Assembly: GCA_043797125.1 (NCBI GenBank)
Contig: JAZDPX010000032.1
Span: 10,425 to 74,424 of the forward strand
DNA: 64,000 bases
Direction of reading: 5' to 3'
Source: Candidatus Omnitrophota bacterium
GTDB lineage: Bacteria; Omnitrophota; Gorgyraeia; JABMRG01; JAFGKX01
Shown here: piece by piece, positions 10,640 to 52,502 of the stretch
Layout of the letters: each line of letters opens with the position of its first letter
Position numbering within the stretch: the stretch's first letter is position 1
Position numbers and translations under genes: made by a program
The notes under the pieces: generated by a model
What the model was told of the DNA's origin: nothing
The model's database searches: none
What the model saw: only the letters and a program-made list of their open reading frames with translations

Positions 10640-10644
10640 AGTTG

Positions 10645-10675: not shown

Positions 10676-10679
10676 AAAA

Positions 10680-11558: not shown

Positions 11559-11559
11559 A

Positions 11560-12117: not shown

Positions 12118-12128
12118 GCCTGCGCTAC
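12103..12128. repeat. CTTAAG-centred palindrome (type 1) overlapping a stop codon
   Basis: gtagcgcaggcttaagcctgcgctac. The stop TAA lies within the central cttaag. Confidence 0.85.
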
Positions 12129-12154
12129 GGAAGGAAATAAAAAGGTATCATAAT

Positions 12155-13150: not shown

Positions 13151-14160
13151 TGAGATTCGGGCAGATTGCGTATGCTTTTGGTTTTTGGATAGTCTTAGCC
13201 TTGAGCCTTTTTTTTGTCTGGGCGTTTAAGGAAAAGGCCAAGGCAATGCGCAGGTTTGCCGATCAGGGCTTTTTAAAGGAGCTTGCGGCTACGCTAAACA
13301 GAAAAAGACAGATAATAAAAACAGTAATAATTTTATTAGCTATTTTCTTAAGCGTTCTGGCTTTAATGCGCCCGCAATGGGGATTTAAATGGCAGGAGGT
13401 CAAGCGAAGAGGCCTTGATATACTTATTGCCATAGACACATCTAAAAGCATGCTGGCTACAGACGTAAAACCAAACAGGCTTGAAAGGTCCAAGCTGGCG
13501 GTTAAAGACCTGGTAAAAAAATTAAAAGGCGACAGAATCGGGCTTGTGGCGTTTTCCGGCACGGCATTTTTGCAGTGCCCGCTAACAATAGATTACGGCG
13601 GGTTTTTGCTGGCTTTAAATGATTTAAATACAGGCATAATCCCCAGAGGCGGCACAGCTATATCAAGCGCCATAAAAACAGCCATCGACAGCTACAAGGG
13701 CGGACAGAAAAAATACAAGATACTCGTTATTATTACCGACGGAGAAGACCTTGAGGGCGACGCGGTTAAGGCGGCAGAGGACGCGAAAAAGGAAAATGTA
13801 AAGATTTTCTGCATAGGAATAGGAACCGAAGCAGGCGAGCTTATACAATTGACTGACGAAAACGGCAATAAGTCTTTTTTAAAGGATGAGAACGGCAATG
13901 TCGTAAAATCAAGATTAAACGAGGTTATCTTAAAGAAAATAGCCCTATCAACGGGCGGGGCGTATGTGCATTCAAGCGGCGCTGAATTCGGGCTTGATAT
14001 GATTTACGAGGAAAGGCTCTCCAAGATGGAGAAACAAGAGATAAAAGCAAAGATGAATAAGCTTTTTATCGAGCGCTTTCAGATACCATTGGTTTTTGCG
14101 CTGCTTCTTTTAATCATAGAGCCTTTTATAGGCGACAGAAAGAGGGGGCAGGCTATGTAG
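13150..14160 (+). CDS. batB: vWA-domain membrane protein, BatB-like
   Basis: TM segments, vWA MIDAS IAIDTSKSM. ATG overlaps the batA stop. Confidence 0.8.
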   Translation: MRFGQIAYAFGFWIVLALSLFFVWAFKEKAKAMRRFADQGFLKELAATLNRKRQIIKTVIILLAIFLSVLALMRPQWGFKWQEVKRRGLDILIAIDTSKSMLATDVKPNRLERSKLAVKDLVKKLKGDRIGLVAFSGTAFLQCPLTIDYGGFLLALNDLNTGIIPRGGTAISSAIKTAIDSYKGGQKKYKILVIITDGEDLEGDAVKAAEDAKKENVKIFCIGIGTEAGELIQLTDENGNKSFLKDENGNVVKSRLNEVILKKIALSTGGAYVHSSGAEFGLDMIYEERLSKMEKQEIKAKMNKLFIERFQIPLVFALLLLIIEPFIGDRKRGQAM

Positions 14161-14162
14161 TT

Positions 14163-14178
14163 GTAGCGCAGGCTTAAG
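14163..14178. repeat. Truncated left arm of the type-1 palindrome (GTAGCGCAGGCTTAAG), immediately upstream of a complete type-2 copy
   Basis: gtagcgcaggcttaag followed by taaatgta and then the full palindrome at 14187-14218. Confidence 0.7.
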
Positions 14179-14186
14179 TAAATGTA

Positions 14187-14218
14187 GCCGTAGCGGAGCC
14201 TTAAGGCTCCGCTACGGC
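14187..14218. repeat. CTTAAG-centred palindrome (type 2) GCCGTAGCGGAGCCTTAAGGCTCCGCTACGGC
   Basis: Perfect 32-bp palindrome. Arms differ from type 1 by paired, compensatory substitutions (CAGG/CCTG to GAGC/GCTC). Confidence 0.85.
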
Positions 14219-14235
14219 CAGGTTGGGATGTCAAT

Positions 14236-15093
14236 ATGAAGAATTTTATAATAGCTATATTTATTTTGTGTTTTCTGGCAAACCCCTGCATGGCTAAAAC
14301 GCAGCCCAAGAAGATAATAAAAAAGGGAAATGCGCTGTATAAGCAGGGAGAATTTCATGACGCGCTGAAACAATATGAAGAGGCGTTTTTGCACGCGCCT
14401 GATTCTGATATCGTGAATTTTGATTTAGGGGACGCCTTGTATAAAATAAAGGATTTTAAGCGCTCAATAAGCCATTTTGAAAAAGCCCTTATCACAGAAA
14501 ACGCTTCCCTTGAGCAAAAGGCCGGCTATAATATAGGGAACGCCAAATATAAATACGGAATAAGCCTGGAAGAGGCTGATTTATCAGCAGCAATAATCTT
14601 ATTAGAACAGGCCCTTCATCATTATGAGCGTAGTCTCGAACTTAAACCTAAGGATAAAGATACGGAATTTAATTATGAGTTTGTAAAAAAGGAACTTGAG
14701 AGGCTGAAGAAGAAGCAAAAGGACCAGCAGCAGCAACAGCAAGGCCAGCAAGGGCAACAGGGTCAGCAGGGCCAGAAACCTGAGGGTGGTCAACAACCAC
14801 AAGGGCAACAGCAGCAGCAAGACCAACAACAGCAAGGCCAGCAAGAACAAAAACAAGACCAGCCGCAAGGTGGCGAGCAATCCCAAGGAGGCCAGCAGCC
14901 GCAGGAACAAGAGCAGCCGCAGGAACAAGAGCAGCCGCAGGGCTCAAGTCAGCAGCAAGATGCAAAAGGCCAGGCATCAGAAAAGCAGGCAGTAATGCTT
15001 CTTGAGGCTTATCGTCATGATGAAGAGCCCACGACTTTGTATAAGCAGAAGATTAATACAAGCGGGATGCCGGAAGCGAAAAAAGACTGGTAA
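14236..15093 (+). CDS. batC: TPR protein BatC-like, with a long Gln-rich low-complexity region
   Basis: Signal peptide, TPR-like N-terminal half, then about 80 aa of Q/G/E/P repeats (QQQQQQGQQGQQGQQGQKPEGGQQPQGQQQQQDQQQQ) encoded by imperfect CAG/CAA repeats at about 14710-14960. Confidence 0.65.
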   Translation: MKNFIIAIFILCFLANPCMAKTQPKKIIKKGNALYKQGEFHDALKQYEEAFLHAPDSDIVNFDLGDALYKIKDFKRSISHFEKALITENASLEQKAGYNIGNAKYKYGISLEEADLSAAIILLEQALHHYERSLELKPKDKDTEFNYEFVKKELERLKKKQKDQQQQQQGQQGQQGQQGQKPEGGQQPQGQQQQQDQQQQGQQEQKQDQPQGGEQSQGGQQPQEQEQPQEQEQPQGSSQQQDAKGQASEKQAVMLLEAYRHDEEPTTLYKQKINTSGMPEAKKDW

Positions 15094-15105
15094 TTTTTAG
15101 ACTCG

Positions 15106-15137
15106 GATGTAGCGCAGGCTTAAGCCTGCGCTACATC
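15106..15137. repeat. CTTAAG-centred palindrome (type 1, extended to a 32-bp perfect palindrome)
   Basis: gatgtagcgcaggcttaagcctgcgctacatc. Confidence 0.85.
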
Positions 15138-15170
15138 GGGAGATATTGCGAGAGTTAAACTATTACAAAA

Positions 15171-17009
15171 ATGCAAAATGCAAAATTTAAAATTAACATA
15201 TTAAAAGCACTCTTGGCCATAGTAGTTATTTTTGCATGCGCTGCGGCGATTGCCGAGGATATTAATTTTGAGGCGACGGTGGATAGAAATAAGGTTTCCC
15301 TCGGTTCGCGGTTTATGCTAAGCCTTAATTTTTACGGGACGCAGAGCATCCAGGAGCCTGACTTACCGAGCATAGAAGGATTCGATTCGCAATACACAGG
15401 CCCTGCCACGACAATGTCCATTATAAACGGCAAGGTCTCAAGTTCAATAACACACAACTATATACTTACACCGCTTAAAGCCGGTAAATTCGAAATACCT
15501 TCCTTAACAGTCGAATACAACGGTAAAACTTACTCCTCAAGCGCGATACCAATAGAAGTTGCGCAAGGGCCTGTCAGCCCGCTGCCAGGCGCGCAAGGCT
15601 CAACGCAGCAGGAGGCTTCTTATGATTTAGGCGACAGGATTTTTCTTGTTATGGAAGCTGATAAAAATACAGCGTATATAAACGAGAATATTGCTGTAAC
15701 AATTAAACTTTACATGAATAAGCTGCCTATTCGGGATATACGGTATCCGGAATTTGAGCATGAAGGGTTTTTGGCGGATAAATTTGACAAATACAAGCAG
15801 TATAAGGAAGCTATTAACGGGGTTTTATATGATGTTATGGAATTTAAGACAAATGTTTCAGCTACACAGACGGGTGAACTCAAAATCGGGCCAGCAAGCT
15901 TAAAATGTAATCTCATCGTGCAAAGAAGGCCAGGCAGAAGAGGCTCTGTATTCGACGATGATTTTTTCGGCTCGGATATCTTTGACGATTTCTTCGGGCG
16001 TTACGAAACATATCCTCTGGACTTGAAGTCAATGGATATATCTATTTCCGCGTTGCCCTTGCCTGATGAAAATGTTCCCGCTGATTTTAACGGCGCAATT
16101 GGGGATTATAATTTTTCTTTGGAAGCTAATCCGAAACAGCTCAAGGTGGGTGACCCTATTACCTTAAAAATGGCCATAAGCGGTAAAGGCAATCTTAATA
16201 CAATTCAGGCCCCAGCGCTTAATTTCGGCGATGATTTTAAGGTTTATGATCCCGAGATAAAGCAAGGCGATAATGTTAAGGAATTCGAACAGGTTATAAT
16301 ACCCAAAAGCGACAAAATAAAACAGATACCTGAAATTTCATTCAGCTTTTTTAATACTCAGTCAGGTAAGTATGAAAAAATTACTAAAGGCCCCACGCCT
16401 ATTATTGTAGAGCCGCTTGCCAAAGGCGACGAGCTGCAGGTTTTAGCAGCTCCTGAGCAAATTGTAGCCCAAGCGCCTAAGCAAGAAATATTAGGCAGAG
16501 ATATCATATATATTAAAGACACGCCGGGCGAGTTAAAGAAAAAAGGAGCATTTTTATGCAGGAGCAAGGCGTTTTTAGCGCTGCAACTATTGCCGCTTTT
16601 AGCTGTCATATCCGTACTTATTTTACATAAGAGGTACAAGCGCCTTACAACCGATATCCGTTACGCAAGGCGCATGCGCGCGCCGAAAAAGGCAAGAAAG
16701 AATCTGCAGGCGGCAAGGCAGCTTCTTAATACGCAGGGTGCGGATAAATTCTTCGAAGCTGTTTTTAAGACTTTGCAGGAATATCTCGGGGATAAATTCC
16801 ATCTTCCGACCGCAGGTATAACCTCAAGTGTGGTAGATGAGTTAAAAAAATATAACATCGATCAGGACGTTCTCTCTAAACTAAAGGATTGTTTTAACAG
16901 CTGTGACGCGGCGCGTTATGCCGCCTCCAGCATTACAAAAGACCAGATGCAAAACGCCTTTAAGATGCTTGAAGAGATAATTGATGAACTTGAAAGGGTA
17001 AGGCTATGA
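15171..17009 (+). CDS. batD: BatD-like oxygen-tolerance protein
   Basis: Signal peptide, large beta-rich extracytoplasmic domain, C-terminal TM segment plus a basic tail. Position in the batA-E operon. Confidence 0.65.
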   Translation: MQNAKFKINILKALLAIVVIFACAAAIAEDINFEATVDRNKVSLGSRFMLSLNFYGTQSIQEPDLPSIEGFDSQYTGPATTMSIINGKVSSSITHNYILTPLKAGKFEIPSLTVEYNGKTYSSSAIPIEVAQGPVSPLPGAQGSTQQEASYDLGDRIFLVMEADKNTAYINENIAVTIKLYMNKLPIRDIRYPEFEHEGFLADKFDKYKQYKEAINGVLYDVMEFKTNVSATQTGELKIGPASLKCNLIVQRRPGRRGSVFDDDFFGSDIFDDFFGRYETYPLDLKSMDISISALPLPDENVPADFNGAIGDYNFSLEANPKQLKVGDPITLKMAISGKGNLNTIQAPALNFGDDFKVYDPEIKQGDNVKEFEQVIIPKSDKIKQIPEISFSFFNTQSGKYEKITKGPTPIIVEPLAKGDELQVLAAPEQIVAQAPKQEILGRDIIYIKDTPGELKKKGAFLCRSKAFLALQLLPLLAVISVLILHKRYKRLTTDIRYARRMRAPKKARKNLQAARQLLNTQGADKFFEAVFKTLQEYLGDKFHLPTAGITSSVVDELKKYNIDQDVLSKLKDCFNSCDAARYAASSITKDQMQNAFKMLEEIIDELERVRL

Positions 17010-17779
17010 AAGTGCGGCTTGCTATTATGGTATTAGTATTCCTTATAATTTCAGTTTTTGCGGCTGCGGCCCGCTGCGACGATGCAAGTGATGCCCGCTC
17101 ATATTTTGCCAAGGCAAACGCCGATTATGCCGCGGAAAAGTTTGATGAGGCAATCGCTGATTACGAAAACGCCTTAAAAACAGGCTTTGAGAGCAGCGAA
17201 CTTTACTATAATTTAGGCAACGCCTATTTTAAAAGCGGACAATTAGGCAAAGCTATTTTAAATTATTCGCGCGCCAAGCGCTTTATGCCGAATGACGCTG
17301 ATTTAAAATCAAACCTCGAATATGCGCAGTCTCTTATAAAAGGCGGGGCGGCCGCCGCGCAGGCGAACTGGTTTGCGCACTTATTTTTAAAATTAACAGA
17401 TTTATTTAGCCTGGATAAAATTACTTTAATAAGCTCAATCCTGTATTTTATATTAGCTGCCTTGATTATTTTGGCAATTGTACTGAGCGATTTAAGAAAA
17501 ATCATAATTTATGCCGTAATAGCGGTCTGCATATTATTAAGCATATCCGCATCATCTTTATATGCGCAATACTACAGGACAATCGTTGAGAAGGAAGCGG
17601 TTGTTGTAGCCCAGACCGTTGACGCCAGATTCGAGCCTTTTGATGACGCGACCGTGTTTTTCAGTTTAAGCGAAGGCGAAAGCGTTGTCGTAGTCGCGGA
17701 AAGAGAAGACTGGGTAAAGATTAAGCGCCTTGATGCAAAGCAAGGCTGGATTAAAGAAGCTGACATAGAGTTGTTATAG
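17006..17779 (+). CDS. batE: TPR + SH3b-like protein, BatE-like
   Basis: Signal peptide, TPR motifs (YYNLGNAYFKSGQLGKAI), TM segment, C-terminal SH3b-like region (WVKIKRLDAKQGWIKEADIEL). Confidence 0.6.
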   Translation: MKVRLAIMVLVFLIISVFAAAARCDDASDARSYFAKANADYAAEKFDEAIADYENALKTGFESSELYYNLGNAYFKSGQLGKAILNYSRAKRFMPNDADLKSNLEYAQSLIKGGAAAAQANWFAHLFLKLTDLFSLDKITLISSILYFILAALIILAIVLSDLRKIIIYAVIAVCILLSISASSLYAQYYRTIVEKEAVVVAQTVDARFEPFDDATVFFSLSEGESVVVVAEREDWVKIKRLDAKQGWIKEADIELL

Positions 17780-17873
17780 CTAACTAAGGCCTCAGGGTCC
17801 TGCCCGTCACAAGTTCGGTTTTTGCAATGTTCAGAGCTGTTTAGCAAAGGCCTGTGACAATCCTCGCAGGGAC

Positions 17874-17904
17874 GCAAAAAAATCCCCAGCGAGGATTTTT
17901 TTGC
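17874..17904. terminator. Bidirectional terminator-like hairpin
   Basis: gcaaaaaaatcc ccagcga ggatttttttgc: a perfect 12-bp stem with A/T runs on both sides. Confidence 0.5.
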
Positions 17905-17954
17905 TCTGACCTCGGCCTTCGCTCTCGCCTGTATGGAAACAAAGCAAAACTATA

Positions 17955-18060
17955 GTCGTTCGGCTGGGGCCCCTCCGAAATTCACCTAAAGATAGTAGGT
18001 CAGGCTTAAGCCTGACCTACTATCCAAGGGTTCAGTTTCGGTGTCCCCAGCCTGCACTCC
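17955..18060. repeat. About 105-bp composite imperfect palindrome with a perfect 34-bp CTTAAG-centred core (type 3: GATAGTAGGTCAGGCTTAAGCCTGACCTACTATC, 17991-18024)
   Basis: The flanks cggctggggcccctccgaaattcacc and ggttcagtttcggtgtccccagcctg are imperfect inverted repeats around the perfect core. Lies within the 530-bp non-coding region upstream of the giant gene. Confidence 0.7.
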
Positions 18061-18198: not shown

Positions 18199-18227
18199 TT
18201 GACAGAAGTGCTATAAATTGCTAAAAT
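18199..18227 (+). promoter_or_regulatory. Sigma70-like promoter (TTGACA-17-TAAAAT) for the giant-protein locus; the -10 lies inside an inverted repeat GTGCTA...TAGCAC
   Basis: ccTTGACAgaagtgctataaattgcTAAAATattagcac, with an about 75-nt leader and RBS AGGAGGGG before ATG 18312. Confidence 0.55.
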
Positions 18228-18311
18228 ATTAGCACTTTTTAAATCATCAAACCATATCAATAAAAAGTTTAGAATAATCAGGGGAAACCTAATATAATAG
18301 GAGGGGAAAAA

Positions 18312-21300
18312 ATGTCAAAATTGACACAAAAATTTTTCACCATTATTATCTGCTTAGCCTTTATCGGGCAAAGCACGAATCTGGGTTACTTACCTTCACC
18401 AAACTCATCTAATACGCATACCTTGCGCGGAATGGCGTCGCAATTCGAAATATTACAGGAACTAGAAGAAGAAATGGCAAATGTAATGCCGAAATTTTAC
18501 ACAGCTGAAAATACCGGGCCCTATATGCCATATTATCAGTTGGACAGATCCTTTTTGCAGGGAAAGGTCGGATTTGCAAGGCTTGGATGCGATACGCCTA
18601 TGGATAAAAAGAAACAGAAGGAAATGAAGGATCTGGTTAAAGAGAAAAAAGATATGTCCCTTCTTCTTACCGATGTCAGCCGTATAGCAGACCCTGCCAG
18701 AATAGACTCCGCTATTGAAACTTTAATACACGTTATACGAAACGGCGGCAGGGTAGTGCTGCAGCCCGGCTGGATTGGCAGGCCCGAAGGTAAAATTAAG
18801 GCAGAATTAAGCGTAGTTCCGGTATTTTTGTATATAAGGGACAAGCTTGTAAAAGCAGGAGTAATAAAAGAAGATGAAATGATCCTCTGTCCCACGGATT
18901 TAGAAAAAAGAGAATGCAAAAGCAATTTCCAGAATGTAGGCGTAATTCGGGAGGCTATTAAAACCCATCTTAAAGATTTTAGGAAAGATGGCGAATCGGA
19001 TAAGGATTATAACAAAAGAAAGGGCAAGGTTAAGATATTGTGCCTTGAAAATCCAAGATTCGATAAAGAGTACGATAGCTTTAAATACAAAGATTTTAAG
19101 GATAGCAAAATAGAGGAACCTGCATTTATAAAGATGCTTAAAGAGGAGATTGCTTATGTTGTTTATGATGACTTCAATCATCAGCACAGGCCGCCGGCTG
19201 ATATATCCCTTCTGCCTGAATATGTACCCTCTTTTGTGGGAAAACGACTGGCTGAAGAAATCAGAATGGCTGATATATTATTGGAGATACTTAATAAGAG
19301 AGATAGAAAACCTTTTGCCTTATATCTTGGAGGAAAGAAAATAGAGACAAAGCCAGGCAAGATTTCCAAGGTAACGGTTGCGCTGGAATTAATCAGAAAC
19401 GATATGATGCGCAAGGATGACAGGCTTCTCATAGGCGGCGGTGTTGCGTATGCCTTTTTGGTTGCCCAGAAATATATAGATAGAATCATAACAGGCTTCG
19501 TAGATGACCCCGATAAAATAATCAGCCAGGAGGCTGTAAAGAAAATTACTCGCGGTGAAATAAGTGATGTTATCGGAGATTCATATATCTCGGATGACCC
19601 GTTTGATACAGAAGAGGGTTTAAAACAGGCGCATGAGAGAATTTATACTTTCGCGCAGCTTTTGGTTGAGGCAGCGAAAAGAGGCATTAAGGTCGGGCTG
19701 CCAATAGATCACAAAGTCAGAAACAACAAAACCGGGCAAATAAAAGAATGTACAGGTAATATTGAACGTGGCTGGTATGGTATTGACATTGGTTCCAAAA
19801 CTCGAGAAATGTATAACGGTGCCAGAAAAGGCATAAGCGCAGGTTTGATTGCAGGGCCTATGGGTATAGCTGATGACCCCGACCTTCCCGAAGGCACAGA
19901 AGGCACAGACATAGTCCTTAATGGCCTTGCGGAAGAGACGAGGGATAACGGCGCCTATACATTAAGCGGCGGAGGCGAGACAACGTTCAGGGCAATGGAG
20001 ATTAAAGTATTGCTTTCATGGCTTTCCTTAGGAGGCGGCGCTTTGCTGGAATATATTCAGAAAAATCGCGAGCTGCATGGCCTGCTTGCGCTAAAGAGAT
20101 CAGCGGAGAAATTTGCCGAGGGGAGGGTGTTAGCAGTTTCTGATGCGAAATCAGTGGAAGACACCATTCAGCAGATTAGGCCCTTATATGAGTCGCTGAA
20201 TAAGATAAGAATAGCCATGCCTTCCAATAAAATACAATATAAAATATGGGCGTTAATCAACTATTTCAGAAAAAAGATAGCTACGTTAACAGGCGCTCCG
20301 TGGAAGATACCTATTACTGCGGGGAACTGGAAAGAGAATATAGGAGAAGAAGAAGATGCAAAAAAATTGATTAAAGAAATGATATATGACCTTCGTTTCA
20401 TAGAAGGGGTTATACCTTTTATATGTCCAACAGCTGCGCATTTAAAAATTGCCGCAGAAGCCATAAAAGAAATGGAAGACAAGGGAATTATAGCAAAAGG
20501 AAAATTCACTCTCGGAGCCCAGGATGTGAGCGCCTATGGGGATAAAGAAATGAGCCCCTATTATAAGGATATAAGAGAGCAGTCAGGCAGAACGCATATA
20601 AAAACTATAATAAATGCAGGCAAAGGATATGTTAAATTTATTATTGTAGGCCATTCCGAGACATGCAGGACTCCTGTAGGGGTGGGCGACGAAGAGGGAG
20701 GCGCTGTGCCGGCCGGGCCAGCTTACGATCCTTTATGTGATTACGATGTGAATAACAAGGCGAAATTAACATTAAAATACGGCCTTACTCCAGATATATG
20801 CATAGGCGAAAGTTACGCGGAAAGAAACGCGGAAAAACTATATCCAACTGCTGACGCAAGAAAGGCCTTTCTTTTAAGACGCGGCATAACAGATGATACC
20901 GGAGAACCGGCATGGAAGCAGATTTTAAGACGCCAGATTCAGAGGAGGTTTTTAGGCCCGGATCCCGACGGTGCGATTACTACTAAGATTACCAAGGAAG
21001 ATATTTTACAAAAAGGCATCTATCTTTCCTACGAACCTATCCACTTTATAAGTTTTGGCAACGTAAACGCGGTCGTGGATATGAAGATTGTCGAAGAAGC
21101 CAACAGATTTATCACCTCGGAGATACTCAAGTTGTATGATAACGATAAAGACATAAAGGATAAGATACAGACCGAGGTAATAAAATACGGCGGCAGCGCC
21201 AATGAAACAAACGGCGAAGAGATAATCTCTACTATTTTCACCATAGGCACCATAGCGGGTGGAGCGAGCAGAACTTCAGCCAGATACCTGGGCCTTAACG

Positions 21301-24300
21301 TGGCATTCGGCGGCTGGATGATTCCCCAAAACGCAATTTTAGAAATCGAAGCGGAGCTTAAGCAATTGCGCAAGGCGCTTAAATCTACGCCGGCTGATTC
21401 AAAAGATGCGTCTTTGGCCTTAGAAGGGCAAATAAACCTGCTTAAGGAATTAAAACAGATAGTGCTTGAGATTATGAAAAAGCAAGGTATAGCTATACCG
21501 GCGCCAAGGATACCGACCGAGCAAGAGATGGCCATATATCTGCAGCTTAAAAAGGTAAAAGCTGTTACAGACGCTCAAGCGCAGTATGCCGGAGCTTATA
21601 TTCCAATAATTGATATGGTAAGACAATTTTATAAAAAGGCAGAAAAGACAGTAATAGATAAAAAGAAAGGGATAGAAGCGCTTGCTAAATATAAAAGTGT
21701 TTCATACAAAGACGTAGACAGCATAGAAGATGATAGCGTAGTTATATTCTGCAATCCGGAAAAAGATATGTTTACGGCGAGATTATGGTCATTCGCTTCG
21801 TACAAGAACGACTATTATAAAGATTATAAAGATTACACAATCTACATAATAGGCCATGCGGATGAGTTCGAGGCTGCGATAGCGGCGGAAGAGGCGAAAA
21901 AGCAGGCGAAAGAGGATGCGAAAAAGACTGAAACTGATACAACAAAAACGAACAACTATAATGCTACTGAAAGTGGCCATGTTGATAATATGCCTGATTT
22001 AACGGGCTTTGGCCGTAACGTGCAGATGCCATACACGCCTTCAGAGGCGGAGATGAACCTGTATATTGCGGCTGTAAAGGTACAAAACGTTACTAATGTA
22101 AAGGGCGTTCAAGTTAAAAGAGGCGATGCCTTTGCAGAAGTATATAGTGACGAGGCCACCAGGTTAGAGGGCGAGGCAAAAAGCTTTGTTAAGAAACAAG
22201 ACCTCAAGAAATACAAGCGTATTTCATATAAGAACAGAAAAGAGATACCTGACGGATCATTGGTTCTATTACCTGCTAAAGATGCAGGAAGGGACGGATA
22301 CAGGGTGACTATATGGTCTGCAAAGAAATACAATAAGGGGGTTTACTCTGGGGAGTTGTATAAATACTTCACCTCCTCCACCGCTTATATAATAGGCCAC
22401 AGAGATGACTTTGAAGTTCTCATAACGGAGTCGCCAAAAAAATATGCTGAGTTATTAACTATGCAGTCTGGATGGGGTGACAAGTGGACCGAGTATTACC
22501 ATATAGTAGCTATAGATAAAGCAATCGAGGACTATACAAAAGAGTTGAATACAAGGGAACGCGACTTGTTAACACCGGAAGGCATATACGAAGAGTATTG
22601 CAAGGTATTAGACGGGGCAGACAGCGCAGAGTTATACAAGATGGCATGGGAATTCGCGTTACGGAAAGATTTTAAGAGCTTATCAACAATATCTGATATA
22701 AAGCAAGTAGCGCCCGGGGACATAATTATTATTACCGATACCAATCCAAAACAGAAAAGTGTCATTAATGTAATTGTGTATGACCCGCAAGAGCATGACT
22801 TAATTGTATCTGCCGCGATTTCCGATTTTAAGAAAGCCGAGGTGCGCTACATAGGCAATAAAAATATGTTTGAAGATAAAATATCTGTAACAGCAAAAGA
22901 CGTATTAAAAGTATATCTGGAGTTTAATAAAAGCGTGACTAACAATGATAAGTTTTTTAAAACCCACGGCATCAGGAGTACAATTGTTGAAAAGTTTGTG
23001 CGTTCCGGCAATTTTAAAAAGCTGCCTGTTGTCAAAAATCAAGACTATCTGCACTCGGGGTCGCTGTTTATTGCCGCTAAAACACAATGGGATAAGCAAT
23101 TAAGCGGGGATGTTCGCCTTATATTTGTAAGCGCTGGCAAGAGACATGCAATAGAGTATGGAGACTGGTGGAGCGCTGACGGGTCAAAAATCAGCGAGTA
23201 TGAACTCCGCTGCATAGGGCCTATCGCGTTAATAAAGAATGAGTTGGGTGAAAAGGCTGTTTCTAAGTTGAAAGACGAGATCGGCTACATAAAAGTTGAG
23301 TTAAAGAGACGGGAAAAACTAAAGAAAGAGATGACGGGAAAAAAGACGACTGTTTCTTCCGAGAAATCCCTTACCTGGCAAATTCCAAAAATTACTCCGA
23401 AAGATATACAAACTGTGTATGATGAGTACGTCAAAAAATATGATAGATGGTACCCATGGTCTATAGACCCGAAACGCCCGGATAATATTCCCGGATATGG
23501 GCTATTTTTAGAAGAAAAGGATATTCGCCCCCTAATAAATCCAAAGGGCATATGGGCGCTACGCAAAGTTATAGATAAAATAGCGGAAGAGGCTAAGATA
23601 GAAGGGAAAAAAATTGACTTAACAACGCACCCTGACGACCGCTTGTATCACAACAAGCTAGTCGAAATATGCCGGTGGACGCGTGTCGATTTAGGTAATG
23701 CGCTGGATATGATGCTTAAGGAACCAAACCGTCTGGGCTATGTGCTTACAAGCAAAGAAGACGCAATATCAAATTGCTTATATATTTCCAGTCTTACTGC
23801 TTATGAGTCTCTCGACAGCGAACAACAGAAGCGTTACAGAGATGGACTAGGGGGATGGCGCAATAAAACATTGCATCAACTAGCTGATGAGCGTATTGCC
23901 ACAGGAGAGGAAATTGCCAGTATGGACCTAACGCAATTCAAGAAGTATAAGTTCCGTCAAATACTGGTACAAACAGAGGATAAAAAGACGAAAGAAAAGA
24001 CGCAAGGACCCAATTACGACGTTACCGAACTTGCAAAAGGAAAAGTTGATGAGTTTACACCAGGAGAAGGTGCCATTCCTGGTGTTATGGTTGGCGCAAA
24101 TAATGCCCTCCAGACGGCCTTAGATATTATTAATACACCATCTTCCACCACGGACGAGAAGCAAATTGAAGAGTATGCAAAATCATTAGATAAGGCTGAA
24201 GAATCGCTTGACAAGGCAATAAATGCAACAAATTTGAAGGATGATTTTAGCGGTTTTAAGGCAATTGCTGCAGAAGGCACAGGCCTGCCTACGGGCACCA

Positions 24301-24959
24301 TAGATGAAGCCAAGGAGCAGTGGCAATACAGCACGAACATTCTACACGCGGTAAAAGGAATAAGTGCTGCAACAAGAATAAGAGGCCTGGAAGACGCAAA
24401 TCAGGATATTATTAAGCCGTTTACCATGTTTATAGATAAAACAGCGCCTTACCAGAAGCAACTTGAATGGGCAAAAGAGCTGGGTGTGTTTGATGTTGCA
24501 AAAGAGAAGTTCGGATGCCAGACAATAGAATTCGATCCTGCAAAAGATAAGATAGACGAATTATTAAAGCAAGCAAACGTCAGCAAAGACATGGCAATGT
24601 TTATCTCGCAGCCTAAATATAAAGAAAAACTTGAAAGAGCTGAAATTAAATCCATAATTATAGACAAATTCGAGCAGGGTATGTTCATAGATTTTATGAC
24701 CCTGGCAGGTTTTTCAAAGGTAATGCTCTATCTGGCCAAATATGGTGAGAATCAGGAATATAAGGACATTAAATCCAATTTATGGAATCTTGCCCAGCTG
24801 TTGTATAGGTCCTTAACTGGCGAGAGTGCGGTGCTTGAAAAGGATAGTATAACCAGTTTTGCAATTAATTTACCCTTGCCTGAACCCAAGGCTTTACTAC
24901 CAGACGAGAAGTTGAGAGAGCTGATTAAGATATCCGCGGAAACAGCAGGCAAGGCGTAA
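18312..24959 (+). CDS. Giant (2215 aa) protein: N-terminal signal-peptide-like segment, complete phosphoglycerate kinase-like domain, complete triosephosphate isomerase-like domain, about 1200-aa K/E-rich C-terminal region of unknown function with internal repeats
   Basis: PGK motifs: ETLIHVIRNGGRVVLQPGWIGRPEG...SVVPVFLYIRDKL (cf. SHLGRP...LKDKL), KILCLENPRFDKE (LENxRF), AYVVYDDFNHQHRPPAD (DAFGTAHRA), FALYLGGKKIETK, LLIGGGVAYAFLVAQ (GGGMAxTFL), GIDIGSKT...GLIAGPMGIAD...GTEGTDIVLNG...TLSGGGETTFRAMEIK...LGGGALLEY. TIM motifs: ITAGNWKEN, FTLGAQDVSAYGDKEMSPYYKDIREQSG...FIIVGHSETCR, ICIGESYAERNAEK, SYEPIHFISFG, VIKYGGSANETNGEEI, IAGGASRTSA. The C-terminal half has a duplicated module (...TIYIIGHADEFE / ...AYIIGHRDDFE). 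Confidence 0.85.
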   Translation: MSKLTQKFFTIIICLAFIGQSTNLGYLPSPNSSNTHTLRGMASQFEILQELEEEMANVMPKFYTAENTGPYMPYYQLDRSFLQGKVGFARLGCDTPMDKKKQKEMKDLVKEKKDMSLLLTDVSRIADPARIDSAIETLIHVIRNGGRVVLQPGWIGRPEGKIKAELSVVPVFLYIRDKLVKAGVIKEDEMILCPTDLEKRECKSNFQNVGVIREAIKTHLKDFRKDGESDKDYNKRKGKVKILCLENPRFDKEYDSFKYKDFKDSKIEEPAFIKMLKEEIAYVVYDDFNHQHRPPADISLLPEYVPSFVGKRLAEEIRMADILLEILNKRDRKPFALYLGGKKIETKPGKISKVTVALELIRNDMMRKDDRLLIGGGVAYAFLVAQKYIDRIITGFVDDPDKIISQEAVKKITRGEISDVIGDSYISDDPFDTEEGLKQAHERIYTFAQLLVEAAKRGIKVGLPIDHKVRNNKTGQIKECTGNIERGWYGIDIGSKTREMYNGARKGISAGLIAGPMGIADDPDLPEGTEGTDIVLNGLAEETRDNGAYTLSGGGETTFRAMEIKVLLSWLSLGGGALLEYIQKNRELHGLLALKRSAEKFAEGRVLAVSDAKSVEDTIQQIRPLYESLNKIRIAMPSNKIQYKIWALINYFRKKIATLTGAPWKIPITAGNWKENIGEEEDAKKLIKEMIYDLRFIEGVIPFICPTAAHLKIAAEAIKEMEDKGIIAKGKFTLGAQDVSAYGDKEMSPYYKDIREQSGRTHIKTIINAGKGYVKFIIVGHSETCRTPVGVGDEEGGAVPAGPAYDPLCDYDVNNKAKLTLKYGLTPDICIGESYAERNAEKLYPTADARKAFLLRRGITDDTGEPAWKQILRRQIQRRFLGPDPDGAITTKITKEDILQKGIYLSYEPIHFISFGNVNAVVDMKIVEEANRFITSEILKLYDNDKDIKDKIQTEVIKYGGSANETNGEEIISTIFTIGTIAGGASRTSARYLGLNVAFGGWMIPQNAILEIEAELKQLRKALKSTPADSKDASLALEGQINLLKELKQIVLEIMKKQGIAIPAPRIPTEQEMAIYLQLKKVKAVTDAQAQYAGAYIPIIDMVRQFYKKAEKTVIDKKKGIEALAKYKSVSYKDVDSIEDDSVVIFCNPEKDMFTARLWSFASYKNDYYKDYKDYTIYIIGHADEFEAAIAAEEAKKQAKEDAKKTETDTTKTNNYNATESGHVDNMPDLTGFGRNVQMPYTPSEAEMNLYIAAVKVQNVTNVKGVQVKRGDAFAEVYSDEATRLEGEAKSFVKKQDLKKYKRISYKNRKEIPDGSLVLLPAKDAGRDGYRVTIWSAKKYNKGVYSGELYKYFTSSTAYIIGHRDDFEVLITESPKKYAELLTMQSGWGDKWTEYYHIVAIDKAIEDYTKELNTRERDLLTPEGIYEEYCKVLDGADSAELYKMAWEFALRKDFKSLSTISDIKQVAPGDIIIITDTNPKQKSVINVIVYDPQEHDLIVSAAISDFKKAEVRYIGNKNMFEDKISVTAKDVLKVYLEFNKSVTNNDKFFKTHGIRSTIVEKFVRSGNFKKLPVVKNQDYLHSGSLFIAAKTQWDKQLSGDVRLIFVSAGKRHAIEYGDWWSADGSKISEYELRCIGPIALIKNELGEKAVSKLKDEIGYIKVELKRREKLKKEMTGKKTTVSSEKSLTWQIPKITPKDIQTVYDEYVKKYDRWYPWSIDPKRPDNIPGYGLFLEEKDIRPLINPKGIWALRKVIDKIAEEAKIEGKKIDLTTHPDDRLYHNKLVEICRWTRVDLGNALDMMLKEPNRLGYVLTSKEDAISNCLYISSLTAYESLDSEQQKRYRDGLGGWRNKTLHQLADERIATGEEIASMDLTQFKKYKFRQILVQTEDKKTKEKTQGPNYDVTELAKGKVDEFTPGEGAIPGVMVGANNALQTALDIINTPSSTTDEKQIEEYAKSLDKAEESLDKAINATNLKDDFSGFKAIAAEGTGLPTGTIDEAKEQWQYSTNILHAVKGISAATRIRGLEDANQDIIKPFTMFIDKTAPYQKQLEWAKELGVFDVAKEKFGCQTIEFDPAKDKIDELLKQANVSKDMAMFISQPKYKEKLERAEIKSIIIDKFEQGMFIDFMTLAGFSKVMLYLAKYGENQEYKDIKSNLWNLAQLLYRSLTGESAVLEKDSITSFAINLPLPEPKALLPDEKLRELIKISAETAGKA

Positions 24960-24981
24960 GCCGGCGTAGGGCAAATGTAGG

Positions 24982-25060
24982 GGCGCCATTTATGGCGCCC
25001 TGATGTAGGGGGGGCTTGATTTATCAAGCCCACAAAAATAGGGTTCGATAAATCGAACCC
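24982..25060. promoter_or_regulatory. Three tandem perfect palindromes (18, 18 and 20 bp) with AT-rich 2-nt centres, between the giant gene and the next gene
   Basis: GGCGCCATttATGGCGCC (24982-24999), GGCTTGATttATCAAGCC (25013-25030), GGGTTCGATaaATCGAACCC (25041-25060). Each is preceded by (t)aggg. They share the central ATTTAT/ATAAAT core but have different arms. Confidence 0.55.
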
Positions 25061-25091: not shown

Positions 25092-27815
25092 ATGCCGAGT
25101 TTACCTAAAAAAGCAGTAACTGTCCTTATTGCCGCTATTTTCATCGCGCAAAGCGCAAATCTGAATTACCTTTCCGCTCAAACCCAATTAAACACGAACG
25201 CATTGCGGGCCATGTCCATGGCTATTGAGCTTGATCCAAACAAGGCTATTATAGAAAAAGTAAAAGAATACTACGCTGAAAAAGGCATAAATGCCGATGA
25301 TTATTATGTTCCGCCCATAGTAGGCAAAGATATATTTGGAAAAGAGCTGACCATAAATAAAGGCGATATAGTTATCCATGCTAACCATCGCGCAGACAGA
25401 GTTTTTGAAAGCTTATTTTCCCTTACAGATCCTGATTTTAATAAAGACAGCCAAAGGTTTGATACCCCTGATTTGGGCTTGCATGTCGTCGCCTTTGCTA
25501 ACCACGATTCAAAATATTTCGCTAAGCATGGCATAGAAGCTGCTTTTACCATCAACGAAGAAGACTACAGGCCTTCATACGATTCCTTGGTGGATGTCTT
25601 GTATGAAAATAATATCAAGCAGGGGTATTTTACAGAAACAGATAAGGGTAAACATGTAAGTTATTTTTTAGCAGGCCAGCGTAATCTTCCTTATGAGGAT
25701 ATGGGGATACACGTGGAAATCGTTGCTTCTCAATCAGTATCTGATAAGGAAAAAGACCCTAATATGCAGTATAAGGAAATAACATCAAACGCCATTAACT
25801 TTTTACAGAATAACAGCTCTGATGAGCCTGCTTTTATTTTGGTAAATTATCCTGTCGATATCCAAGGCCACAATATTAAATGTAATAAGCAAAGAGCTAT
25901 TGATACAATATCAGCCTGCGATAGGGAAGCTGAAAAACTATATAATGCGGTAAAAGAAATGGGCGGTGTATGGATAGATACATCCGACCACGGCAACGTT
26001 GAAGAGTTAGCTGTTTTGGATAAAAATGGCATGCCTGTAACGGATAAATACGGCAATATCCCTTATGACCAGCATACTGCTAATTCTGTTCATTGCATAA
26101 TAGACGGTTTAGGAAATGTTAATCTTAAAGATGGCAAGGGCCTGGCCAATATCGCCCCCACCGTCCTTGAAATTTTAGGAATTGATAAGCCGAAGGATAT
26201 GGAAGAAAGCCTGCTTAAAGATTATAAATACAAAAAGATAAAAGGCCCTGTTGTGGTTGTTGTGCGCGACGGCTGGGGTAAAAGCAAGTTTACTAACCCT
26301 GAGGCATTGGAATGGAATGGATTAGAACTGGCTAAACCCGCCTTTTTTAACCGGCTTAAAGAAACCGCCCCCATTACTTGGATTAAGGCGCACGGAAGCG
26401 CTGTTGGCCTGCCTGATTATCAGGAGGGCGATTCTGATAACGGCCATCGCACCATAGGGGCAGGAAAGATACTGCCGACATTATATAAATTAATTATAGA
26501 CCAAATAGAATCAGGCGATTTTTATAAAAACGAAGTTCTGCGCAATATCTTTAAAAAAGCCATAGAAGAAAAGCACGATATATGCGTGATGGGCCTTGAT
26601 TCCGACGGAGGAATACACTGCGATCATAAGTATTTTCTTGCTTTAATAGAAATGGCAAGGTGTTTTGACATTAAAAAGCATGGCATAAAGCTGAAGCTTT
26701 TTCCGATTTTAGACGGAAGAGACAGGATGACCAGAATATATGAACAAAGCGGAGCTTACTATCTTGAGGATTTAGACAGAAAGATAAAAGAAGCGGGTCT
26801 TGCAGGCGCTGCATATATAGCTCAAACTGTCGGAAGATATATGGCAATGGACAGAGACGCTGTAAACGCTGATAAGGAAAGAGAACGCCTTGAGCAGAAA
26901 TTATCCGATGCCTTAAAACCGGATGATCCCGCGAATAAAGCTGACAATATTGTGAAATTAGTATCAGGTATTACAGCATCTGTGACTAAGGAAATTGCAA
27001 AAACAGAAAAAGAGCTGGCCAAGGCAAAAGACGCGCCAAAACAGGCATTTTTTAACAGCATAATTAATTGTTTGAATGCCATTGGGCAGCTTAATGAGAA
27101 ATTTAATCTTGAAAACGCGAAAGGCAAAAATAGGAATAATGAGAAAATAATTGAATTAGGAAAGAAAATAGCTGAAAACAAAAGACAGGAGTGGCTTATC
27201 CGCGCTAGCGCATTATGGCAGGAGCGTTACAAGGTAGCTTACGATGCCTGGGTTTATGGGAGCAAAGCTCCTCAAATGAAGTTCATGGAAGCCGCCGCGC
27301 ACAAAGATGAGCCTTTGAGCGAGACGGTTGATTATTCAGAACCGCAGCCTGCAGATAAAAAGGGTGTATGTGTACAATACAGCTATGTTCTGCATTTAAG
27401 AAATAAGTTAAAAAAACATTTTGATACAACAACAACTTCAACTCTAACAGCTGCGGAACTAACATTAGAGGAAATAATAGTGGAATGTGTTAAAAATGAA
27501 GTATTTTATGCTTCAAACCCATTATTTATTAAAGATTCTGAATCTATAAAAGCTGATGGGGTTTATTTTTCAAGCCGTGCATTTAGGAGTAGAAAGTCAA
27601 TCACGGAACAAAATAAGCTCTGCAAGGATATATATATTCTTACGGGTGCGGGAATGGCCGATGTTGAGTCAGTAGCAAGATGGCAGTACCTGTTTGTAGG
27701 TAACCTGGATGAGAAAATATTAAAAAATGGATTCTCTGATAATCCAGGCGCAGAGAAAGTCTATCCTAATGATTCGCAGAAGCTGCTGGACATCGCAATT
27801 CTTGCGGCTGCGTAA
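25092..27815 (+). CDS. 907-aa protein: signal-peptide-like N-terminus with motif shared with the giant protein, circularly permuted 2,3-bisphosphoglycerate-independent phosphoglycerate mutase (GpmI-like) domain, about 200-aa unknown C-terminus
   Basis: C-terminal-half GpmI motifs come first: DIVIHANHRADR (FMNFRADR), FILVNYPVDIQGHN (ICNYPNGDMVGHTG), WIDTSDHGNVEEL (ITADHGNAE), LANIAPTVLEILGI (DIAPTMLSLMG). N-terminal-half motifs come second: VVVVVRDGWG (VLVILDGYG), AHGSAVGLPDYQEGDSDNGHRTIGAGKI (GLPDRQMGNSEVGHxNLGAGR), VMGLDSDGGIHCDHKYF (GLLSAGGVHSH), ILDGRDR (FLDGRDT), GRYMAMDRD (GRYYAMDRD). Confidence 0.85.
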   Translation: MPSLPKKAVTVLIAAIFIAQSANLNYLSAQTQLNTNALRAMSMAIELDPNKAIIEKVKEYYAEKGINADDYYVPPIVGKDIFGKELTINKGDIVIHANHRADRVFESLFSLTDPDFNKDSQRFDTPDLGLHVVAFANHDSKYFAKHGIEAAFTINEEDYRPSYDSLVDVLYENNIKQGYFTETDKGKHVSYFLAGQRNLPYEDMGIHVEIVASQSVSDKEKDPNMQYKEITSNAINFLQNNSSDEPAFILVNYPVDIQGHNIKCNKQRAIDTISACDREAEKLYNAVKEMGGVWIDTSDHGNVEELAVLDKNGMPVTDKYGNIPYDQHTANSVHCIIDGLGNVNLKDGKGLANIAPTVLEILGIDKPKDMEESLLKDYKYKKIKGPVVVVVRDGWGKSKFTNPEALEWNGLELAKPAFFNRLKETAPITWIKAHGSAVGLPDYQEGDSDNGHRTIGAGKILPTLYKLIIDQIESGDFYKNEVLRNIFKKAIEEKHDICVMGLDSDGGIHCDHKYFLALIEMARCFDIKKHGIKLKLFPILDGRDRMTRIYEQSGAYYLEDLDRKIKEAGLAGAAYIAQTVGRYMAMDRDAVNADKERERLEQKLSDALKPDDPANKADNIVKLVSGITASVTKEIAKTEKELAKAKDAPKQAFFNSIINCLNAIGQLNEKFNLENAKGKNRNNEKIIELGKKIAENKRQEWLIRASALWQERYKVAYDAWVYGSKAPQMKFMEAAAHKDEPLSETVDYSEPQPADKKGVCVQYSYVLHLRNKLKKHFDTTTTSTLTAAELTLEEIIVECVKNEVFYASNPLFIKDSESIKADGVYFSSRAFRSRKSITEQNKLCKDIYILTGAGMADVESVARWQYLFVGNLDEKILKNGFSDNPGAEKVYPNDSQKLLDIAILAAA

Positions 27816-27973: not shown

Positions 27974-29368
27974 GTGACTAAATTTTTTAGAAGGACAATC
28001 GCGGTTATTATTATCGCCGGCTTAGGCGCAGGCCAGGCGAGCGCCGACGCGCTCAGGCCTTCTGCCTTCGTGAATGGGCCTGAAAAAACAGCGCAAGAAC
28101 AGGCCTTCGAAAACCTTAAAAAGGCTTTTGATTTAAAAGGCGCGATAACCAAAGCTTTACTTGCCGAAGCGATAAATGAATTAGAGGATATATTTAATAG
28201 CCGCAGCCAAAGCGCGCGGGATACAATAGTAAACAATATTGCATATCCGTTTTTCGAAAGAGAAAAAGCCTCCCCCGGCAAAACCGCTTCGGAAACCCCG
28301 ATAAAGAAAGATCTGCTGGATAAAATTAAAGTTTTCGGGATAGATGTTATTCCTACGGGGGACGTTACTTTCATGTGGAAGGAGACAGCAAAAAATGGGC
28401 CTTTGGAATTAACAAACGTAATATATAATTCCGGCGGCGGCTCTGTGAACATAGCGAAGGTGTTCGCGAATTTTAATGAATATTTCGGCCTTATGTCTTT
28501 TGCGGGCAGAGGCAGATTCCATAAGAGATGGCGCCAAGATTTTGAAAGCGAGCACGTCATAAATTTCAGGTTTTTTACAGAGCAGCTTCACCGCAAGATA
28601 AATATTTATAATATTGTCAAGGGCGAAAAACTTCCTGTTCTATGCAGCAGGGGAAATACTATTCCAAGGGTTATAGTTAATGAGTTTTTAAAAATATTCG
28701 AAAAAAAGCTTAAAAAATGCAAAAATGTTAAATTTTTGACACTAAACGCCAGCTCAATGGTGGCGTTTGAAGACGCAGATGCGCTACGGGCATACAAAAA
28801 GATTATAGAAATCGCCCATAAGCATAAAAATAAAATCGAAGTTTTGATAGATTTTTCCTCGACCACAAAGCCGGATGTTATAAAAGCTGTTTTAGAATTA
28901 AATGAGCCAAGGAAGCGGCCTTGCGATATCATCACTCCGAGCCTTGAGCAGTTTATTAAGATATTGGAAAGCACAGGCTTGGCCAAAAAAAACGAGTTAT
29001 CCAGAGATACGCTGACCGACAAAAAAATAGCTACCTATGCCTGGCAGCTGATAAAGGACTATAACCTTTCAGCTGTCTTAATAAAGAGAGATAAGGACGG
29101 TTTGATATTGGTCAGGAACAATTATGAGTTTATGAGAGAAAAAGGGCTTGAGGTTGAAGTAGTATCTGAAATTGCTGCCGGAGACGCCGCTGCCGCCGGG
29201 CTTTTAATCGCTTTATCTGAAGGCAAAAGCTGGCAAGAAGCCATTAAGACGGCGGATTTATTTGGCGCCGCAACGGTTATTTTGCCCGCTACCGAGGTGG
29301 TTACCCCTGAAGCGCTTGATTTTGTCAAAAAAGAACAAATCCTGCAGAATATCTCCCAAGCGGCGTAA
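27974..29368 (+). CDS. PfkB-family (ribokinase/phosphofructokinase-B superfamily) carbohydrate kinase with N-terminal signal peptide; GTG start
   Basis: Signal MTKFFRRTIAVIIIAGLGAGQASADA. PfkB N-terminal glycine motif NSGGGSVNIAKVFANF. C-terminal ATP-site motif EIAAGDAAAAGLLIAL (cf. GAGDxFxGGFL). Confidence 0.75.
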   Translation: MTKFFRRTIAVIIIAGLGAGQASADALRPSAFVNGPEKTAQEQAFENLKKAFDLKGAITKALLAEAINELEDIFNSRSQSARDTIVNNIAYPFFEREKASPGKTASETPIKKDLLDKIKVFGIDVIPTGDVTFMWKETAKNGPLELTNVIYNSGGGSVNIAKVFANFNEYFGLMSFAGRGRFHKRWRQDFESEHVINFRFFTEQLHRKINIYNIVKGEKLPVLCSRGNTIPRVIVNEFLKIFEKKLKKCKNVKFLTLNASSMVAFEDADALRAYKKIIEIAHKHKNKIEVLIDFSSTTKPDVIKAVLELNEPRKRPCDIITPSLEQFIKILESTGLAKKNELSRDTLTDKKIATYAWQLIKDYNLSAVLIKRDKDGLILVRNNYEFMREKGLEVEVVSEIAAGDAAAAGLLIALSEGKSWQEAIKTADLFGAATVILPATEVVTPEALDFVKKEQILQNISQAA

Positions 29369-32176: not shown

Positions 32177-32188
32177 TTGTGGATTATA

Positions 32189-52493: not shown

Positions 52494-52502
52494 TTCTATG
52501 CT

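Follow-up and report, generated by a model that had tools for sequence, protein, structure and literature searches.

A giant PGK-TIM fusion protein of Candidatus Omnitrophota with a signal-like leader and a tail domain found in other sugar-phosphate enzymes

Why a bacterium should encode two glycolytic enzymes within one giant protein that begins like an exported one, and where in the cell such a protein would act, are the questions raised by a locus of a Candidatus Omnitrophota metagenome-assembled genome (MAG). The window analysed here is a stretch of 64,000 nucleotides (contig JAZDPX010000032.1, positions 10,425 to 74,424 of the forward strand; assembly GCA_043797125.1), in which the open reading frame 18312..24959 (+) encodes 2,215 residues with no internal stop. 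It is deposited at NCBI as MFH0732372.1, titled 'MAG: phosphoglycerate kinase [Candidatus Omnitrophota bacterium]', on a contig of 78 kb, and the adjacent genes have neighbouring accession numbers. The giant protein joins a phosphoglycerate kinase (PGK) domain to a triosephosphate isomerase (TIM) domain, preceded by a leader and followed by a tail of 1,200 residues. Judged from sequence, it is one of a small group of sugar-phosphate enzymes of Omnitrophota that are marked by such a leader and tail. We give about even credence to the reading that it is a multidomain enzyme with a Sec-type leader, which would share an extracytoplasmic or membrane-proximal site with its sibling enzymes. The parts of the gene are as follows.

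18312..18446 (+): leader, residues 1-45, with n- and h-region (1-19), G-Q-S (20-22), then TNLGYLP...THTLRGM
18534..20111 (+): PGK domain of a divergent clade with insertions, residues ~75-600 (PF00162, PDB PGK matches, motif alignment)
20112..20309 (+): PGK-TIM linker, ~65 residues, no family match
20310..21311 (+): TIM domain with three insertions, residues 667-1000 (PF00121, PDB TIM alignment)
21312..21497 (+): linker from TIM to repeat copy R1, residues 1001-1062, no family match
21498..21905 (+): repeat copy R1, residues 1063-1198, ending ...IYIIGHADEFEAAI (Smith-Waterman alignment with R2)
22023..22445 (+): repeat copy R2, residues 1238-1378, ending ...AYIIGHRDDFEVLI
22563..22904 (+): probable degenerate copy R3, residues 1418-1531, ending ...VRYIGNKNMFEDKI
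22881..23270 (+): probable degenerate copy R4, residues 1524-1653, ending ...LRCIGPIALIKNEL
23271..24086 (+): orphan region, residues 1654-1925, in which an apparently globular segment rich in Trp comes after a K-rich linker
24087..24959 (+): conserved C-terminal region, residues 1926-2215 and the stop codon, with a Rossmann-like core at ~2035-2215

The reading frame is one genuine gene of this MAG. As an earlier note on this DNA had claimed, a single giant frame runs uninterrupted, comprising 6.6 kb without stops in a genome of 41% GC, and base composition is uniform across it. The same note had allowed for a tail that is a separate gene, set off by a stop or frameshift near residue ~1000. 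No stop is present in the frame, and an in-frame strong Shine-Dalgarno sequence with ATG, sought as an internal gene start, was not found. Because the frame is bracketed by both hallmarks of the family described below, the leader at its N-terminus and the shared domain at its C-terminus, it is regarded as a single gene and not a chimera.

The identity of the first enzyme is clear. PF00162 (Pfam) matches residues 116-583 (E 1.6e-40, 139.8 bits against a cut-off of 27), and PGKs of the PDB match down to E 3e-21. The domain was aligned with E. coli PGK, with L001, a canonical PGK of Bacteroidales, and with four close relatives; the fold starts at ~75-88, with 'GKVGFARLGCDTP' as strand 1. The PGK-TIM core that the earlier note placed at ~130-1000 is hence upheld by Pfam matches above their cut-offs, with its start moved towards the N-terminus. 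In PGK the 3-phosphoglycerate (3-PG) 'basic patch' and the ligands of its 2-oxygen comprise Asp23, Asn25, Arg38, His62, Arg65, Arg122 and Arg170 (PMC7729029). All four substrate-site arginines are kept in the giant protein (Arg130, Arg157, Arg249 and Arg293), as are the catalytic lysines Lys343 and Lys347 within GGKKIETK (340-347) and the nucleotide-site motifs GPMG (515-518), GGGE (553-556, with Asp replaced by Glu) and GGGA (574-577). A 10-residue insert follows the GGxK motif. Two other proteins of the clade, P0001 and P0002, have PGK domains 50% identical to that of the giant protein with all motifs conserved, and share the first part of its PGK-TIM linker (ALKRSAEKFAEGRVL). Two further members, P0003 and P0004, are leaderless GAPDH-PGK fusions of 794 residues with PGK domains 36-37% identical to it.

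The second enzyme is recognised by PF00121 (Pfam) in two stretches, 667-843 and ~900-1000 (E 7.3e-12, 45.7 bits against 20.1), and TIMs of the PDB match the isolated region at E 1e-10. Its catalytic residues Asn672, Lys674, His781 and Glu908 are kept, together with Glu783 and the phosphate loops 7 (YGGS, 959-962) and 8 (GGAS, 983-986). By these motifs both domains look catalytically intact, the PGK being divergent; the occurrence of its clade as leaderless GAPDH-PGK fusions argues for an active kinase.

The N-terminus of the giant protein looks like a signal peptide. Inspection shows Lys3 and Lys7, a 12-residue hydrophobic core (FFTIIICLAFIG) and then G-Q-S, in agreement with the signal-like start seen in the earlier note; across the related leaders, small residues stand at -3/-1 (G-Q-S, A-Q-S, A-S-A) and the early mature region is acidic. 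No other hydrophobic segment of the protein reaches the transmembrane threshold. A lipoprotein signal was rejected for want of a lipobox, and a transmembrane anchor was rejected as the simplest reading, given an h-region of only 12 residues. BLASTP searches with residues 1-55 matched the downstream gene, which encodes a cofactor-independent phosphoglycerate mutase (iPGM; E 5e-5), the aldolase-TIM protein P0007 (E 4.5e-5) and the gene that follows P0007 in locus L004 (E 2e-4). The leader is therefore homologous across four proteins from two genomes, with the consensus h-region-[GA]QS[TA][ND]x[GN]YL...[AT]L[RK]xM. Five leaders show the [AT]L[RK] motif at position 37-38; the signal sequences of P0006 and P0009 differ from this leader, yet keep ALR/ALK. 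The L004 stretch (10001-15038) lies on an Omnitrophota-like contig, where two consecutive genes carry nearly the leader of the giant protein. The first encodes P0007, in whose TIM the first ~52 profile positions are missing and with them the catalytic Asn and Lys, and the second a TIM-like protein ended by the contig edge.

The other hallmark lies at the far end of the tail. An exhaustive HMMER search with residues 1016-2215 against 1.84 billion representative proteins found, besides the protein itself, only four others (P0006, P0007, P0008 and P0009), all of which match in the C-terminal domain, and found no homologue of residues ~1016-1925. BLASTP extends two of the four carrier matches back to residue 1926. 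A search with the C-terminal region, as proposed in the earlier note, thus yields four proteins and covers the last ~200 residues only; the tail, there called unknown sequence, is largely orphan, and its last ~200-290 residues form a conserved domain. P0006 (1,292 residues), from the same MAG (MFH0731492.1), has a signal sequence, PGM/PMM domains and one repeat module; P0007 (1,230 residues) has a leader, TIM and class II aldolase; P0008 is a 335-residue fragment with the C-terminal domain; and P0009 (1,055 residues) has a signal sequence and no recognised domain. The tagged set accordingly consists of PGM/PMM, TIM with class II aldolase, and PGK-TIM, joined by the permuted iPGM through its leader only. 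With a profile of the C-terminal domain, a word-indexed search returned P0008 only and a scan of metagenome contigs one 1.5-kb locus, L005. The giant protein scores 316.9 bits over residues 1992-2215 against this profile, and the domain also ends in an ...LP(L)PEP... tail.

Structure prediction of the C-terminal domain (predicted local distance difference test score, pLDDT, 78.9; predicted template modelling score, pTM, 0.80) gave a Rossmann-like arrangement of five beta-alpha units. Three residues are invariant: Asp2042, where strand 1 ends, Lys2049 and Lys2136. The domain had no sequence-profile match. HAD-like and flavodoxin-like Rossmannoid domains were compared with this domain only, and the Foldseek results were not significant. 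Membership of the HAD phosphatases was rejected, as motif I, DxDx[TV], is not kept (D-K-T in the giant protein) and the five members show no conservation of motif II (Ser/Thr) or motif IV (acidic pair). A motif of the form [KR]-[AST]-[AS]-S-[AS]-G (KASSAG, RASSAG) was noted in P0007, P0008, P0009 and L004:13827-15038, with three occurrences in P0007 and four in P0009 at apparent domain borders. It could mark linkers or processing sites; neither the giant protein nor P0006 contains it.

Between TIM and the C-terminal domain the tail contains repeats. Residues beyond 1000 had no Pfam, NCBIfam, PHROG or PDB sequence match, tail sub-regions searched at permissive thresholds (Pfam E<=10, PHROGs, PDB sequence and profile) gave nothing meaningful, and a word-indexed homologue search with residues 1010-2215 returned 0 matches. 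No homologue spans the TIM-tail junction. The lysine/glutamate enrichment reported earlier is no more than marginal, K rising from 9.5% before residue 1000 to 11.9% beyond it and E from 7.7% to 8.1%. R1 and R2 are 33% identical overall and score 150-156 in Smith-Waterman alignment against 34-36 +/- 6 for shuffled sequences (z = 19.6; none of 300 shuffles reaches the score). The duplication that the earlier note described is hence plainly detectable by alignment, although its unit is ~135-140 residues and not ~110. R3 is weakly similar to R1 and R2 (z 2.1-2.6) and R4 weakly to R1-R3; both align in register with R1 and R2, and a hidden Markov model built from R1 and R2 alone did not detect either significantly. 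The single module of P0006 (residues 803-895) scores z 7.8 against R3, 8.9 against R4 and 3.9 against R2, and because it bridges them to R2, R3 and R4 are counted as probable copies. The repeat is an alpha/beta module of ~110-140 residues, of which two copies are certain and two probable. In P0006, too, it sits between the enzyme and the C-terminal domain.

These features can be joined in one proposal. The leader would send the tagged sugar-phosphate enzymes to one extracytoplasmic or membrane-proximal place, where the repeats and the C-terminal domain would hold sibling enzymes together or anchor them, so that the PGK and TIM steps would run beside the mutase, aldolase and kinase steps. Leader and C-terminal domain would then be shared address or assembly tags, and the repeats, orphan segment and C-terminal domain would be lineage-restricted, probably non-catalytic modules. 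We infer the assembly or anchor role of the repeat module and the C-terminal domain purely by conjecture, because neither has an assignable fold family.

Several observations weigh against an exported, co-assembled enzyme. In the PGK domain three 3-PG-contacting positions are altered (Asp23 to Gly92, Asn25 to Asp94 and His62 to Trp154). These changes and the 10-residue insert are common to the whole clade, including the leaderless GAPDH-PGK fusions, and for that reason look like a clade signature and not like decay. The lid loop 6 of TIM is non-canonical, reading PIHFISFG (909-916) and not PxWAIGTG. Foldseek comparison of the C-terminal domain with the PDB gave no significant match and no assignable fold family, and the repeat module likewise had no fold match to any binding domain and no assignable family. 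The iPGM and the PfkB kinase encoded downstream are without the C-terminal domain, and their tails are not similar to that of the giant protein. PGK-TIM plus tail is a singleton architecture: homologue searches found no second such sequence, and the whole protein matched only an unrelated Bacteroidales PGK among genome contigs. Finally, PGK and PfkB need ADP/ATP, which are not expected outside the cytoplasm, and the gene order pgk-tpi-gpmI resembles a housekeeping operon.

The last two points also favour the main rival, which we consider possible though less probable than export: PGK and TIM would be cytoplasmic housekeeping enzymes, the N-terminus an uncleaved tether or a non-export sequence, and the tail a scaffold of a membrane-associated glycolytic metabolon. 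The intact catalytic residues and the strong ribosome-binding site are in keeping with it, and metabolic reconstructions place Omnitrophota PGK in normal glycolysis. Furthermore, West-Roberts et al. caution that an overlooked transmembrane helix could invert topology (bioRxiv 10.1101/2023.11.21.568195). Against it, the geometry of the leader fits a signal peptide and not an anchor (12-residue h-region, basic n-region, small residues at -3/-1, acidic mature start), no second hydrophobic segment is present to bring the chain back into the cytoplasm, and the presence of the leaderless P0003 and P0004 in the same PGK clade makes the leader an added feature.

The proposal of a shared extracytoplasmic or membrane-proximal site can also be taken further than its core. 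Some Omnitrophota might use a dedicated, conserved leader to export an entire ATP-linked block of glycolysis (PGM/PMM, PfkB, aldolase-TIM, PGK-TIM and iPGM), assembled by the tails in an enlarged periplasm or at the contact site with, or in the interior of, a host or prey. There it would act on sugar phosphates of the host and might also harvest phosphoryl groups coupled to host ADP/ATP, as an extracytoplasmic 'glycosome-like' module. We regard this extension as unlikely.

More doubtful still is the idea that the protein is a surface adhesin or has a structural role, with the PGK and TIM folds put to new use as binding modules and catalysis irrelevant. Surface PGK of pathogens is documented to bind host proteins (PMC7729029) and Omnitrophota are inferred to be host-attached (PMC10066038). 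The loss of the catalytic Asn and Lys from the TIM of P0007 suggests that some family members are non-catalytic, and the pocket substitutions Gly92, Asp94 and Trp154 also speak for this reading. The retention of all catalytic residues of both enzymes with their nucleotide- and phosphate-binding loops, and the conservation of every PGK motif at 50% identity to P0001 and P0002, make this reading improbable.

The earlier note had drawn attention to GHxDxFE, a motif recurring at the same place in R1 and R2, as the hint of a novel metal- or substrate-binding domain. That reading has fared poorly and is now very improbable. R1 and R2 are a recent duplication, in which shared motifs are expected, and GHxDxFE occurs in these two copies only. 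R3 and R4 read IGNKNMFE and IGPIALIK and the P0006 copy reads IGNINEIP (within QLRCIGNINEI), so that His, Asp and Glu are missing from all three. Across the copies only Tyr14, Ile124 and Gly125 are invariant, which leaves the Ile-Gly of the motif. In the AlphaFold model GHxDxFE spans the junction at which the last strand gives way to the C-terminal helix, and the module, as said, matches no binding domain in fold. An assembly or sequencing artefact, in which an indel or chimera near residue ~1000 joined a PGK-TIM gene to an orphan gene, is scarcely credible: the architecture has been seen once, on one MAG contig, and its TIM-tail junction is spanned by no homologue, but the frame is stop-free and uniform with no internal start, leader and C-terminal domain likewise bracket enzyme domains in P0006 and P0007, and the repeat module occupies the same place in P0006.

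The sequences around the giant gene comprise the following features.

18199..18227 (+): candidate sigma-70-like promoter, TTGACA-17-TAAAAT with a TG extension, 11 of 12 matches to consensus
18300..18306 (+): Shine-Dalgarno sequence GGAGGGG, 5 nt 5' of the giant-gene ATG at 18312
24981..25060 (+): three 20-nt hairpins in tandem, GGG-N4-ATTTAT/ATAAAT-N4-CCC, within the 132-nt spacer that separates the giant gene from the iPGM gene
25092..27815 (+): iPGM-like gene, leader-bearing, 907 residues with a 300-residue orphan tail (MFH0732373.1, 'hypothetical protein V2A72_05580')
27974..29368 (+): PfkB-family sugar(-phosphate) kinase, 464 residues, with a signal-like N-terminus (KFFRRTIAVIIIAGLGAGQASA/D) and an N-extension of ~120 residues

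The ribosome-binding site of the giant gene ranks among the strongest of the window genes. The promoter candidate is a consensus match only, such sites being regionally no commoner than in shuffled sequence. The product of the gene directly downstream is a circularly permuted iPGM with its halves swapped: residues 48-374 correspond to positions 208-503 of TIGR01307 and residues 383-591 to positions 4-196 of NF003897. The signal-like start of the PfkB kinase differs from the giant-protein leader and has a twin arginine (MTKFFRRTIAV...GQASA/D), which might make it, by sequence, a Tat-type rather than a Sec-type leader. The three hairpins (GGGCGCC-ATTTAT-GGCGCCC, GGGCTTG-ATTTAT-CAAGCCC and GGGTTCG-ATAAAT-CGAACCC) differ in their stems and keep the loop and the GGG/CCC ends. 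The pattern occurs three times in the window, each time in this spacer, and not once in 20 shuffles. The array might be an attenuator, a terminator or a protein-binding site.

Upstream, a 34-nt perfect palindrome (GATAGTAGGTCAGGCTTAAGCCTGACCTACTATC) lies at 17990-18025 within a 530-nt non-coding stretch 5' of the giant gene, and a terminator-like hairpin with a T-run stands at ~17860-17905, 3' of a Bat operon. The latter, a complete Bat/MoxR-type operon (9644-17779), lies directly 5' of the giant gene on the same strand and comprises MoxR AAA+, DUF58, BatA, BatB, TPR/BatC, BatD and TPR-SH3/BatE; a functional link to the giant gene is not evident. Elsewhere in the window, a 927-residue open reading frame at 32177-34960 fuses MnmG/GidA (tRNA uridine-5-carboxymethylaminomethyl modification) to radical-SAM and Radical_SAM_C domains. 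A low-GC island at 49839-53654 (0.35 against ~0.43) contains a Fic/DOC gene, part of a UPF0236 transposase and, on the minus strand, a HATPase_c protein with a signal-like start and an SLRP motif; it probably represents a mobile insertion. Scans of the window for Rfam families and tRNAs gave no matches.

The interest of the locus lies less in GHxDxFE than in the tagged, ATP-linked glycolytic set and its place of action. Three adjacent genes of middle size, for PGK-TIM, the permuted iPGM and PfkB, have export-type leaders, and the products of two of them (PGK-TIM and PfkB) need ATP/ADP. They present a tractable form of an Omnitrophota puzzle, the giants of 10-150 thousand amino acids (kaa) being experimentally intractable, and provide three unannotated modules (leader, repeat module and C-terminal Rossmann-like domain) as search handles. 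If the enzymes were exported and active, the notion of a purely cytoplasmic bacterial glycolysis would be overturned, with a bearing on how these nanobacteria exploit their hosts. If they were cytoplasmic, topology calls based on signal peptides would be unreliable for the long proteins of Omnitrophota. Metabolic reconstructions are affected as well, such genes being currently counted as ordinary PGK and TPI.

Among known systems, the moonlighting surface enzymes of Gram-positive pathogens are generally described as ordinary leaderless housekeeping proteins that reach the surface by a route not yet known. Moonlighting surface PGK (e.g., streptococcal; PMC7729029) is a glycolytic enzyme outside the cytoplasm, as is proposed for the giant protein, which differs from it in encoding a dedicated leader and tail.

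The fusions of Thermotoga maritima and T. neapolitana (Schurig et al., 1995; reviewed in PMC7729029) resemble the giant protein in that PGK precedes TIM on a single polypeptide and both catalytic sets are kept. They are cytoplasmic proteins of ~650 residues with directly joined domains, whereas the giant protein has a leader, a ~65-residue linker, PGK insertions and the His to Trp change, three TIM insertions and a 1,200-residue tail. The comparison drawn in the earlier note is hence sound as regards domain order and does not extend to equivalence, the giant protein scoring 156.5 bits against a cut-off of 883 for NF010569, the NCBIfam equivalog for bifunctional PGK/TIM. Most likely the two fusions arose independently, because the nearest relatives of the giant-protein PGK are joined to different partners; both fusions probably go back to neighbouring pgk and tpiA genes, that of the giant protein by read-through from one into the other. 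The classical order of the glycolytic operon is gapA-pgk-tpiA-gpmI-eno, and the presence of gpmI as the next gene fits such an origin.

The giant protein and P0001-P0004 have in common the PGK signatures R-[LG]-[GS]-x-D-x-P, LQPGWIGRP and GGKKIETKPGxVSKVTVAL with the 10-residue insert; unlike it, the four are without TIM, the repeat module or the shared C-terminal domain. P0001 and P0002 (1,620-1,646 residues) consist of a signal sequence, an N-region of ~900 residues with no known identity, PGK and a C-domain, for which a relationship to the C-terminal domain of the giant protein was rejected (hhalign probability 0.8%). The genes after that of P0002 at locus L002 encode an orphan with a signal sequence and an aldolase-like protein. 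P0004 lies at 7834-10218 of L003 (ENA ERZ27247707 k141_97752), a contig that also encodes a TATA-binding protein and a family B DNA polymerase and is probably archaeal; an archaeal-looking contig with the same PGK clade hints at gene exchange between Omnitrophota and archaea.

A further close parallel is with the giants of Omnitrophota itself. Giant signal-bearing proteins of this phylum contain TIM, GPI, FBPase, PGM/PMM and FBA domains and are predicted to be extracellular, with doubts about their topology (bioRxiv 10.1101/2023.11.21.568195). Of the long Omnitrophota proteins, 94% have a signal peptide or transmembrane helix, and 'multi-enzyme metabolic' giants have been described (10.64898/2026.06.07.730766). 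Like the 'Archaeovorins' and related giants, the protein described here comes from Omnitrophota, has an apparent signal peptide and carries sugar-phosphate domains amid long unannotated stretches. It is far smaller (2.2 kaa against 10-147 kaa) and shows none of the defining Archaeovorin features (giant size, HEAT, GT5/GT1, TPR, N-terminal C39/S8); Pfam finds PGK and TIM only, and no domain of the HEAT, glycosyltransferase, dockerin, C39 or S8 type. The domains listed for those giants do not include PGK, and the literature searched describes neither PGK nor an operon in which separate enzymes of middle size carry leaders and share a tail domain. The enzymes here, unlike the giants, are separate mid-size proteins that have a discrete leader and C-terminal domain in common. 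The giant protein is one of the apparently signal-bearing long sugar-phosphate proteins of Omnitrophota and a second, probably independent PGK-TIM fusion.

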